From the IMG/VR virus record IMGVR_UViG_2917849834_000004: 48,246 nt of DNA, one strand, 5' to 3'. Position 1 is the first letter of the stretch. Each line of letters starts with the position of its first letter. Origin of the DNA: a virus. Taxonomy: Duplodnaviria > Heunggongvirae > Uroviricota > Caudoviricetes. Position numbers: made by a program. This document shows positions 24,001 through 27,000 of the stretch, in pieces.

Positions 24001-27000
24001 TTTTTACCCTGGGCAACCAGCATTGCGAATTTCGCCTGCTGGTCTGAAATACCGAATTCATCGGGACAGAACGAAATTTCTTCCGCATCGCCCTCATTCA
24101 GGCACGCATCGGATACTGGCTTTTTTTTCTGAGATTTTTCGTTCCGCTTTTGCGCAGTTTGCGCAGATTTTTTCTGCGCACTTTTTTGCGCAGTTTTGCG
24201 CACTTCTGCCTGCGCATTTTTCGGAGGTTTTTTTATGTAACGGCGGGCTGTTGCGTAATTCAGTCCCCTTGCTTCACACCATGCCGCCGGAGATATACCG
24301 GAGCGGGTGTATTCAGCAATATACTCCTGCTGCAACGCCCCCCAGTCCGGTCTGCTCATCAGTTAATCCTGATTTTTATCCACCCTGAGTAGTTCGCGCA
24401 GGGCAAAGGCATCCCCTTTTCTGGCAAGCTTAAACAATGCCGCCCGTAGCTCAGCTTCACCTTTCGCTCTGCCCTTACGGATGGACGCGTAAAAATTTGT
24501 CATTGCTTCCCGATTTTCTTTCAGTCGGTTCAGATCAACATCCAGCACGTCAGCGATTTGTTGTGCAGTCATCCGGCACGCTGCCAGAGACTCGACTTTC
24601 GAATACGGAATCATTTGTCACCCCCATTGATATGCAGGGTGTCTTCTTCCTGTATTTTTTATGAAGGATTTTTACTGCAGCGTTGTTCCAGGTGACCTGG
24701 TGGTGAATGCGTTTATGGCTGGCGCCCATCAGTGAGATTTTTACGCACGACGGTGCATACATGACGGAGTAAAAACTTTTAACGTAGGTTCCGGAATCCA
24801 GATACAGCTCGGTCATTCCACCACTGTTTTTCTGCGTCTGTTTCTGCCCTAACTGGACAGCACCGATCGTCATAAACAATTCACCACAGCGACCGAGATT
24901 CGTGTACGTATTCACATCCTCGTTAATGCGCCCCATGAATGAGAACGGTCGATCAACCGAACAGATAAAGCTGTTCATTGCCTTGCGTTTCACCCACGAA
25001 GCATGGCCGCCATTGTCACCAAGAAAATCCCCGCCCTGCGACATAGCGATGGAAAGCGCAGGTATTGATTCGTAGTACGCCAGCATTTCAGAAAGGATCG
25101 CATCCAGTTTCCTTATCGGAAAATAGGCCTGGTCATAGTTGCGATCCACCCGAAACTGGAACTCGTGATAATCATCATCGAGCTGAATGAAGTATTTACA
25201 CCCGACCAGTTTTGCCAGGTCGAAACAGGCATTACGGGCGTAAAAAATTGAGCGGCGGTCACCGAAATTATCGGCTTCGTCAAAACTACTGGCGATATCG
25301 GCTTTGGAAAACACCAGCACCTGTTCACCAAATTCAGCCATGTACTGATGCCGTGTCTTATCTTCATCATCAACAACGATAAAAATTTTCCCGGTATAGC
25401 CAGCACGACGCAACGTCCGGTAAGTCAGAACTTTGTCCGGTCGCCCGTGAGTCAGAATAAAGGCGCAAAAATCATCACGCATATTCCTCCTCCTCCCCAC
25501 CATGCATGATCTCCACCATGCGCTGCGTCATCCGGACAAATCCATTTTCAATAGCCTGCTGATAATCAATGATCACCAGCGCCGACTCCTCGAAAAAACA
25601 CTGAATTTCAGCGGGGGCGTGAGCGTAATAGTCCGCAATTCTGCTGAAATTAAACACCGTGTGACGTTCTGCCGCACACAGGAGGAATTTCTCAATATCA
25701 GGCTCAAGGGACGCCGAACGTATCCTGCTGATCAGCTCCTGAGTTTTCGTATCGTCGTACAGTTCACTGATATCCGGTTTACCGCCCGACGGCTCATAAA
25801 CAGGCGTATCAATTTTCGTCGTATACGGCTCCTCCTCATTTCCTGTACCGGGCAAAACATCCGTCAACAGTTCATCAATTTCTGTCGGGCTGAATCCTGT
25901 CAGGGAGATATCAAAATCAGCATTGATTAGGTCCGACAGCTCCATCCGTAACAGATCTTCATCCCACCCAGCATTCAGTGGCAGGCGATTATCTGCCAGA
26001 CGGTACGCCTTTTTCTGATCATCCGTCAGACCAGACAGAACGATGACCGGAACGGAATCCATTTTGAGCACTTCAGCCGCCATAACGCGACCGTGACCAG
26101 CAATAATTTCGCCCTTTTCATCAATCAGCACTGGATTAGTCCAGCCGAATTGCTTAATGCTTTCTACCAGTTGTGCCACCTGCTCAGGGCTGTGTATCCT
26201 GGCATTGTGTGCATACAGAGACAGTTCTTGTAACGGGCGATAGACGATCTTCAATTTCTCGCTCATACAGCCTCGCTTTATGAATAAAAAAGCCCGCTAT
26301 CGGCCAGTGCGCTGGGTGCGCGGCGGGTGCCGATGACGAGCTTTGGCATTATCGCAGCCCCTCACTATGAAGGGCTGCTGTAATGCTGATGTGCGGTAAC
26401 TTCATTAATATTTTCAATACAATATATTCACTTATGTTCGGCGCCACCAAGAATAATATTCACACCATCATCACTCTATAATCTAATAGAAATAAAAATG
26501 CCCCACTCTGGGGCAATAAAACAACAAAAACAACTTAATTATTCAGCATCTAATTCTATAGCCCATATATGATTCGGACTATATGCTTCGCTTGCGCATA
26601 AATTCACTTTCATATCTGAAAGTATAGCAGCCATTGCAATTTTCCTCATTTCATCAGCGACATAATTGTCCGGATAGTTTTGCGCCCCAGGAATAATCCA
26701 AACACCGCCAGTTGAACTGACGACATATATACCTTTCCTATTAACGTTCGCGTCAGCAAAATATTGAGTCAATTTTACTCCTTCTACAATTCTGGCTGTA
26801 GTTCTTTCACAGTTAGTTCTAAACTCCTGGCTAACACCTGCAAATGTTTGGATAGATACCAAACTTATCATAAAAACAAAAATTTTAATCAATGCCTTAA
26901 AGTTCATCTTTATCTCCATTCTTTACCAGAAAATCATCAATACTTTGCAAAGTCAACAAAGTGGATTTGCGTTTTATGAACTTCTTAAATTTTAATAAAT

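Follow-up and report, generated by a model that had tools for sequence, protein, structure and literature searches.

A TAGT-family glycosyltransferase gene and its ParB-like partner: a widespread, uncharacterised phage module beside the terminase genes

Background

To our knowledge, glycosylation of phage DNA is known only on hydroxymethylated pyrimidines. The TAGT (TET-associated glycosyltransferase) family includes the beta-glucosyl-HMC alpha-glucosyltransferase of phages T2 and T6, which puts a second glucose on glucosyl-hydroxymethylcytosine (glucosyl-hmC), the base-J glucosyltransferase (JGT) and TET-linked phage glycosyltransferases, and its characterised prokaryotic, viral and kinetoplastid members act on DNA bases (PMC13216743, PMC13390438). 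The NEB group found that phage GT-A enzymes encoded near a C5-methyltransferase and the dioxygenase 5mYOX build glycans on 5-hydroxymethylcytosine (5hmC), and left open the role of about 65% of phage glycosyltransferase contigs, which have neither a 5mYOX nor a ThyS neighbour (bioRxiv 10.1101/2023.12.21.572611). The present report concerns a stretch of 48,246 nucleotides from a virus of the class Caudoviricetes (IMG/VR record IMGVR_UViG_2917849834_000004), an Escherichia coli prophage referred to below as the window, which carries on its minus strand, at 24550-26266, a gene for a 310-residue TAGT protein coupled to a gene for a 263-residue ParB-like partner.

ParB-like activators of phage DNA-modifying enzymes have also been published. 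In 2026 the same group reported that a subclass of phage thymine dioxygenases needs a cognate ParB-like protein, specifically on double-stranded DNA (dsDNA); that protein has a nucleotide-binding domain and a C-terminal domain, with no DNA-binding domain, and predictions place the thymine dioxygenase between its two ParB domains (PMC13229309). A 2025 survey of the ParB-CTPase fold describes phage fusions to methyltransferases and to domains of unknown function, with no mention of glycosyltransferases. The paper that first described TAGT (Iyer et al. 2013) had its own ParB idea, which is taken here as relayed in PMC8256090 and PMC13229309.

The original prediction for this locus held that the pair could not be matched to a described system. 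The TAGT family is in fact described, whereas a module made of a ParB-like protein and a TAGT only is functionally uncharacterised: our literature searches retrieved no paper on the pairing of a ParB or C-domain protein with a TAGT or on the function of ynaK, the Escherichia coli K-12 gene related to the partner, and nothing functional on ynaK/ydaY, on TAGT with ParB, or on ORF1/ORF2 of Lactobacillus delbrueckii phages. We report that the module is built of known families and is nevertheless distinct, widespread and uncharacterised, combining a TAGT without a hydroxylase with an apparently obligate partner whose constant domain is unannotated.

A TAGT-family glycosyltransferase

The gene at 24550..25482 (minus strand; ATG at 25482, stop at 24550) encodes the 310-residue protein, which had been called a nucleotide-sugar transferase on weak, motif-based grounds. 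That call was correct. The Pfam family TAGT (PF20691) matches with 121.6 bits against a cutoff of 27.5 (E 5.5e-35, profile positions 4-205 of 205), phrog_842, 'beta-glucosyl-HMC-alpha-glucosyltransferase', matches at 9e-104, and recent PGAP annotation names the protein 'GREB1-related protein'. Its predicted structure has the GT-A (nucleotide-diphospho-sugar transferase) fold, with a T4-like homologue as the structural match of rank 23. A sequence search against the PDB gave nothing at E<=1, the Pfam scan recognised a soluble TAGT domain only, and PADLOC returned no defence-system match. The protein is mildly basic, unlike its acidic partner.

Two motifs had been singled out in the original prediction, IVVDDEDK (residues 35-42) and IQLDDDY (residues 98-105). 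In these, D38, D41 and D102-D104 are invariant among 24 homologues of 60-82% identity, as are R14, DEADNF (68-73), QGGD (149-152), NEDV (187-190) and RxHH (258-261), and the majority of the invariant residues are still kept at about 40% identity. The DDD (DxD) metal/nucleotide-sugar motif, residues 102-104, lies at 25171..25179 (minus strand), where the reverse complement of atcatcatc reads GATGATGAT; it is at least 90% conserved in the alignment of distant homologues and invariant in that of close ones. R14, D102-D104 and E188-D189 fit the pattern R...DDD...ED[Y/F], the third element being EDV here, not EDY/F. This is the pattern reported for JGT and for experimentally active phage GT-A DNA glycosyltransferases (bioRxiv 10.1101/2023.12.21.572611).

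An acidic ParB-like partner

The gene immediately upstream, at 25475..26266 (minus strand), encodes the 263-residue partner, a full-length version of ynaK of the K-12 Rac prophage. PGAP names it 'ynaK: ParB/Srx family N-terminal domain-containing protein', phrog_620 matches it over its full length (1.8e-88), and it is strongly acidic, with a median isoelectric point (pI) of 4.5 and a net charge of about -25.

Its N-terminal domain (residues 1-135; 25862..26266, minus strand) is assigned to the ParB/Srx type, which binds nucleoside triphosphates (NTPs), by Pfam and Foldseek. The Pfam match to ParB_N (PF02195) is marginal (27.4 bits against a cutoff of 26.3); Foldseek against the PDB returned Noc, PadC, ParB-CDP, KorB, sulfiredoxin (Srx) and SerK, with probability 1.0. 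The box II motif is G57-H-G-R60; G57, R60 and N93 are invariant, D92-N93 is conserved, and G57 and R60 of AGHGR align to the GERR motif of Helicobacter pylori ParB. By this alignment, the box II/P-motif GxxR arginine of NTP binding is present. The best non-self PHROG and PADLOC matches of the domain are the N-terminal parts of fusions between ParB and DNA methyltransferases (phrog_498, 1.8e-49; PADLOC MTase_II PDLC03229, 3.7e-36).

A conserved linker peptide follows at residues 146-170 (25757..25831, minus strand), with the motif Y-[ST]-x-K-I-x-x-P-x-Y-x-P ... P ... E-L, in fuller form Y-T-x-K-I-x-T-P-x-Y-E-P-S...P...E-L. Residues Y148, P155, Y157, P159, P164 and L169 are invariant in the partner alignment, and AlphaFold predicts the linker to be disordered. 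The helical C-terminal domain (C-domain) occupies residues 176-255 (25502..25741, minus strand) and has the conserved sequence FLLxAAERHTVFNF..IADYY...LFExSALVIIDY.QAIExGF. It belongs to no Pfam family: a profile search of the PDB and the Pfam scan gave sub-threshold, implausible matches only (FadA adhesin, 0.011; Phage_Gene47, 0.04). In the AF2 model it has low confidence, with predicted local distance difference test (pLDDT) values of 30-80.

A role as a ParABS partition protein was considered and ruled out, because the Pfam scan found neither a helix-turn-helix (HTH) domain nor a ParB C-terminal domain, no ParA gene was found among the open reading frames (ORFs) scanned in the window (down to about 140 residues, essentially all of that size or larger), the partition-ParB model TIGR00180 scored 33.8 bits, below its cutoff of 58.45, and the protein has a pI of 4.5. 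Both reading frames exist at the predicted coordinates (24550-26266) and lie on the minus strand. The word 'nuclease', attached to the ParB-like gene, is only a legacy label: what the comparisons identify in the partner is a putative NTP-binding N-domain of the ParB/Srx type.

Conservation of the pair

Hidden Markov models (HMMs) were built from both proteins and run over the fetched loci. The partner lies immediately upstream of the TAGT gene, with overlapping or abutting junctions, in 84 of 84 close loci (TAGT 60-99% identity) and in every one of the 76 loci that could be assessed on a varied set of environmental viral contigs, where the TAGT is about 40-47% identical to a distant representative. 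From GTDB species-representative genomes 80 loci were taken and 78 assessed; the partner is adjacent in 76 (60 full-length, 16 C-domain-only or edge-truncated) and not adjacent in two. These genomes span Bacillota, Bacteroidota, several lineages of Pseudomonadota, Verrucomicrobiota, Planctomycetota and Acidobacteriota, and also include Candidate Phyla Radiation lineages, one uncultured archaeon and Methanosphaera. Among cultured viruses the pair is carried by Haloarcula virus HHTV-2 (gp21/gp22) and, in Lactobacillus, by phages c5 and phi jlb1; with a TAGT identity of only 27%, a Porphyromonas phage still has this layout. The representative search found 1324 clusters at 50% identity.

When the search was reversed and started from the C-domain, a TAGT was found in 79 of 79 assessable loci, directly adjacent in 70 and separated by a 0.9-2.4 kb insert in nine. 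It therefore seems that the C-domain is specific to this TAGT clade, with ParB_N as an accessory. Stand-alone partners of 120-150 residues, consisting of linker and C-domain without ParB_N, occur in Vibrio phage pv27 and at loci L106, L114, L150 and L151, and C-domain-only partners are also present at many genome loci; the linker motif is retained in partners that lack ParB_N. Locus L114 (6409-8849) has two tandem C-domain/TAGT pairs. Across these loci the pairing of TAGT and partner appears to be obligate, and the constant partner element, universal in this clade, is the linker motif plus the helical C-domain, the ParB N-domain being often absent.

The position of the pair is also conserved. 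Across 51 non-redundant diverse loci, the next two genes gave 48 matches to terminase large-subunit families: Terminase_3 (23), Terminase_6N (20), GpA (4) and T7-type (1). In phage c5 the pair forms the first two genes past the cos site. The genes upstream of the pair in the diverse loci are ordinary replication and recombination genes.

Nested and fused genes

Genes for donor supply and for tailoring enzymes are found between partner and TAGT or fused to the TAGT. A histidine-phosphatase/cytidylyltransferase fusion occurs in four loci. The set further takes in an NAD-dependent epimerase, a sulfotransferase, a radical SAM enzyme, second TAGTs and a P-loop domain, along with a class-I S-adenosylmethionine (SAM) methyltransferase that is either a free gene or fused to the TAGT at either end. 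Loci L255 (3104-7709) and L256 hold expanded modules: besides a TAGT and a C-domain they have a CofD-like transferase, whose C-terminal half contains a HAD-like DxDxT motif, a nucleotidyltransferase of the MobA/IspD type and another TAGT, a gene set that hints at phosphodiester-linked glycan decoration. The variety of these nested and fused genes looks like a rapidly diversifying glycan pathway, with the signature of an arms race.

The TAGT fusion proteins observed (P0248, P0251, P0285, P0287, P0267, P0268, P0269, P0313 and P0321) join the enzyme to a class-I SAM methyltransferase, to Sulfotransfer_2, to a second TAGT-like domain or to an N-terminal P-loop (GxxxxGKS) domain of ~180 residues that belongs to no Pfam family. 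These ~180-residue N-extensions were considered as fused C-domains and rejected, as they have the P-loop motif and no match to the partner HMM; one possible C-domain-TAGT fusion (P0081, from a single contig) was too weak and was not used. An HK97-like phage with the pair has two Glycos_transf_2 genes after its capsid and head genes (L001, 15837-16894; L002, 8659-9716), and these resemble virion-glycosylation cassettes.

Prevalence in E. coli and the K-12 relic

At a nucleotide identity of at least 80%, the two-gene stretch occurs in 1565 of 5426 complete E. coli genomes, far beyond chance, and all but three records reach at least 90%. In 889 of these genomes at least 80% of the pair is covered; in about 676 of the 1565 less than 80% is covered. 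In E. coli, numerous TAGT fragments are joined to remnants of tail fibres or of Lom, which suggests that deletions between the module and the tail genes recur.

YnaK of K-12 (87 residues) is 93% identical to partner residues 1-86. By this similarity ynaK (Rac prophage; locus L165, 4378-4981) is a truncated relic of the partner's ParB N-domain, and the pair gives this E. coli K-12 y-gene a probable functional context. The neighbouring ydaY was considered as a remnant of the TAGT or the partner and rejected, having no in-frame similarity to the partner.

Organization of the locus

The translational coupling of the two genes, also part of the original prediction, was borne out, and the junction is kept in every related locus examined. 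The plus strand at 25475-25482 reads tcacgcat and the coding strand ATGCGTGA; the TAGT start therefore overlaps the stop of the ParB-like gene by 8 nucleotides, its ATG lying inside the last codons of the partner gene (coding strand ...GGT GGG GAG GAG GAG GAA TAT GCG TGA). The GGAGG-rich, Shine-Dalgarno-like run GGAGGAGGAGG lies at 25486-25496, within the codons for the partner's C-terminal GGEEEE, so that overlap and ribosome-binding run together make up a junction of 25475..25496 (minus strand). An alternative in-frame ATG upstream, at 25503, would give 317 residues; the start at 25482 is favoured because of the run at 25486-25496 and because all homologues begin MRDDF.

At the other end, the last 22 residues of the E. 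coli TAGT (24553..24618, minus strand) form a non-conserved tail. Homologues end near residue 288, and pLDDT is <50 for residues 286-310. The TAGT frame overlaps by 65 nucleotides (24550-24614) an 83-residue small ORF directly 3' of it (24363..24614, minus strand), and homologues in other genera end ~22 codons earlier, just before this ORF. The small ORF, given for context only, matches phrog_309 'terminase small subunit' (2.5e-22, positions 145-218 of 319), resembling part of such a subunit. The genes for the terminase small subunit (23268-24359; Pfam Terminase_2) and large subunit (21950-23278; Pfam Terminase_6N) follow on the minus strand.

In coding-strand order, a Q-like antiterminator gene, three tRNA genes, holin and endolysin genes and the genes for the A and B subunits of an enterotoxin precede the pair, which is followed by the 83-residue ORF, terminase small and large subunits, portal, and head and tail genes. 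A terminator-like hairpin lies at 26499..26515 (minus strand), after the enterotoxin B cargo gene and upstream of the pair, and no sigma-70-like promoter was found in front of the pair. Because of these two features, we infer that the pair is probably expressed late and read from a Q-dependent transcript.

The enterotoxin genes, of the type II heat-labile (LT-II) kind, occupy 26539-27664 (minus strand), immediately upstream of the pair: the A subunit gene at 26897-27664 (Pfam Enterotoxin_a, 6e-119) and the B subunit gene at 26539-26919 (LT-IIB, 2e-58). In K-12 Rac, trkG fills this slot. The three tRNA genes, between the Q-like gene and the lysis genes on the minus strand, are at 30374-30455, 31106-31180 and 31184-31259; they are a Gly(TCC), a Thr(TGT) and a predicted tRNA-Tyr whose unusual ATA anticodon may mark it as a pseudo- or mis-called tRNA. 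On the plus strand, a gene for a RecE-like exonuclease VIII (1047 residues) and then recT occupy 42048-46255, and the integrase gene starts at 47011; RecE-like exonuclease VIII, RecT and the ynaK match together mark the prophage as Rac-like.

Also on the plus strand, a two-gene unit at 34096-35465, situated between the early-region genes for DUF1367 and DUF977, encodes a 306-residue protein and an overlapping hydrophobic, probably membrane, protein of 153 residues. Neither has a credible match in Pfam, NCBIfam or PADLOC, and the unit may be uncharacterised moron or defence cargo. The 306-residue ORF (34096-35016) was considered as a hidden dioxygenase, an assignment that these same family searches left unsupported.

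Comparison with described systems

The phage enzymes of PF20691, those of T2/T6 included, share with the 310-residue protein the Pfam and PHROG families, the GT-A fold and the DDD motif. The T-even enzymes differ in acting on glucosyl-hmC supplied by a dCMP-hydroxymethylase pathway, whereas no hmC pathway was found here; the sequence identity of T4-like homologues is only 23-25%, and the T4-like Aeh1 homologue has no ParB or C-domain partner annotated alongside. The 5mYOX/TET-associated phage GT-A enzymes and JGT have the GT-A fold and the R...DDD...ED pattern in common with it (for JGT and GREB1 the structural comparison rests on Pfam and the literature). The 5mYOX/TET-associated enzymes act post-replicatively and are, as here, often encoded near ParB and terminase genes. 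However, their genes cluster with that of a C5-methyltransferase, with that of a 5mYOX producing 5hmC or 5-hydroxymethyluracil (5hmU), or with both, whereas the present clade has no such neighbour in the window or the surveyed loci and has an apparently obligate partner domain instead.

The partner finds a parallel in the ParB-dependent thymine dioxygenases (5mYOX176/ParB176, PNAS 2026, PMC13229309), in which the enzyme gene likewise adjoins one for a ParB without a DNA-binding domain. Its composition of ParB_N, disordered linker and helical C-domain, beside an enzyme gene, is that of a ParB-activated system, the likeness to ParB176 being one of domain architecture. The client there is a dioxygenase and here a glycosyltransferase, and the ParB N-domain here is dispensable in many relatives. 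Phage fusions of ParB_N to DNA methyltransferases (phrog_498, PDLC03229) have the N-domain closest to that of the partner, but in these a SAM-dependent enzyme is covalently attached, whereas here the glycosyltransferase is a separate, translationally coupled protein and the partner has an extra linker and C-domain. An analogy with the prophage methyltransferase M.EcoGII, considered as a possible bearer of a ParB domain, was dropped, since the paper on that enzyme says that it has no extra domain; according to that paper the gene is silent in normal growth, and its authors suggest that it is switched on at prophage excision. Finally, the mammalian O-GlcNAc transferase GREB1 has a glycosyltransferase domain of the same family, but is a 1949-residue multidomain cytoplasmic protein that modifies oestrogen receptor alpha (PMC7968844).

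Acceptor and mechanism

We propose, tentatively and with slightly less than even confidence, that the pair forms a glycosyltransferase, expressed late and activated by the partner, whose action on phage DNA precedes packaging. The soluble GT-A enzyme would transfer a sugar from a nucleotide-activated donor. The partner's linker and C-domain would bind the enzyme and probably dimerise or activate it, while its ParB/Srx N-domain would act in a clamp-like, NTP-gated way and enable the enzyme to use dsDNA, as in the ParB-dependent thymine dioxygenases. Both proteins would be made from the late transcript along with terminase, and replicated phage DNA would be glycosylated just before packaging and so be protected from restriction in the next host. 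A link to DNA is suggested by the similarity of the partner's N-domain to those fused to phage DNA methyltransferases, by the position of the promoterless pair between the lysis/cargo genes and terminase, and by the likeness of the partner's architecture to that of the ParB activators of thymine dioxygenases (PMC13229309). The role in DNA modification or anti-restriction that had first been suggested for the pair remains an inference.

Several observations weigh against DNA as the acceptor. The DNA-acting TAGTs characterised so far use 5hmC, 5hmU or a sugar that hmC already bears. No neighbouring enzyme that would supply such an acceptor came to light: TET/JBP (5mYOX) dioxygenases, thymidylate-synthase-like pyrimidine hydroxymethylases and DNA methyltransferases were found neither among the window ORFs scanned nor among the top Pfam families of the ORFs preceding the pair at 52 diverse loci (up to four ORFs of at least 100 residues per locus), and the complete genomes of c5 and phi jlb1 (32-38 kb) have no annotation for any of them. 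As these enzymes were neither found nor annotated, the acceptor would have to be generally available or encoded by the module. With a pI of 4.5 the partner is very acidic, and no DNA-binding domain can be recognised in it; its DNA-linked ParB_N is dispensable, since many partners lack it; and GREB1 glycosylates a protein (PMC7968844), so that the TAGT family can switch to protein acceptors. No paper retrieved by our literature searches reports glycosylated DNA in a phage with this pair.

The main rival reading, less likely in our estimate, is that the acceptor is a protein, the TAGT glycosylating, most simply, Tyr, Thr or Ser of the partner's linker in the manner of glycogenin, or a packaging or virion protein, and the glycoprotein serving in packaging, being injected or acting as a decoy. 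Such an acceptor, encoded beside the enzyme, would explain how the system could function from E. coli to haloarchaea without a hydroxymethyl-base pathway, and the universal neighbour of the TAGT is a segment rich in invariant Tyr, Pro and Ser/Thr with a helical domain after it, not ParB_N. GREB1, a TAGT-domain protein, O-GlcNAcylates a protein; the methyltransferase, sulfotransferase and second-glycosyltransferase fusions would also suit protein glycans, and further glycosyltransferase genes of the GT2 type follow the capsid gene in L001 and L002. Yet in L114 the motif's first Tyr-Thr is missing from the second copy of the C-domain, the partner's ParB N-domain is of the subtype that occurs in fusions with DNA methyltransferases, and DNA is the substrate of every TAGT from prokaryotes, viruses and kinetoplastids characterised so far. 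An acceptor of hydroxymethyl-pyrimidine or glucosyl-hmC made by a 5mYOX or hydroxymethylase encoded elsewhere, or the hmC DNA of superinfecting T-even-like phages, with the pair serving in defence or exclusion, is improbable, even though the T2/T6 TAGT sets a precedent in that it glucosylates glucosyl-hmC a second time, hypermodification of invading DNA by prophage glycosyltransferases is an idea raised by the NEB authors, and ParB and glycosyltransferase genes are frequently found alongside 5mYOX in metaviromes. No supplying enzyme was found in the 48-kb window or is annotated in the complete small phage genomes; the pair, having no promoter of its own and lying in a late operon, should be silent in the lysogen; it occurs in virulent-type and archaeal viruses, where the logic of exclusion fails; and the TAGT has no PADLOC defence match.

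That the two genes are unrelated neighbours is very improbable, whether as a ParB-like nuclease or partition protein beside a surface-remodelling glycosyltransferase (for seroconversion or exclusion) or as decaying prophage cargo. Truncated copies are common in E. coli, K-12 keeps only the ynaK stump, and TAGT fragments are fused to tail-fibre remnants, all of which would fit decay. However, the pairing and the overlapping frames are near-invariant across phyla and down to 27% TAGT identity, the catalytic residues are invariant, the Pfam scan recognised in the enzyme a soluble TAGT domain only, no Gtr-type flippase was found in the window, and no ParA gene or HTH domain was found. As to the chemistry, we consider it possible, if on balance doubtful, that the module carries out a glycosylation of an undescribed kind, either on canonical DNA (base, end or backbone) without a hydroxymethyl precursor or as a partner-primed glycan on a ParB-like protein that accompanies the DNA.

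Conclusion

The pair is a very large and coherent part of the ~65% of phage glycosyltransferase contigs that have had no explanation. What is new here is the apparently obligate partner with its unannotated constant domain, to which ParB_N is an optional add-on. Because this partner would be needed, screens that express single genes might see nothing. If the target is DNA, the chemistry of the modification would be new and would bear on restriction evasion, on artefacts in sequencing and on the engineering of phages; if it is a protein, the module would be a new phage glycoprotein system.

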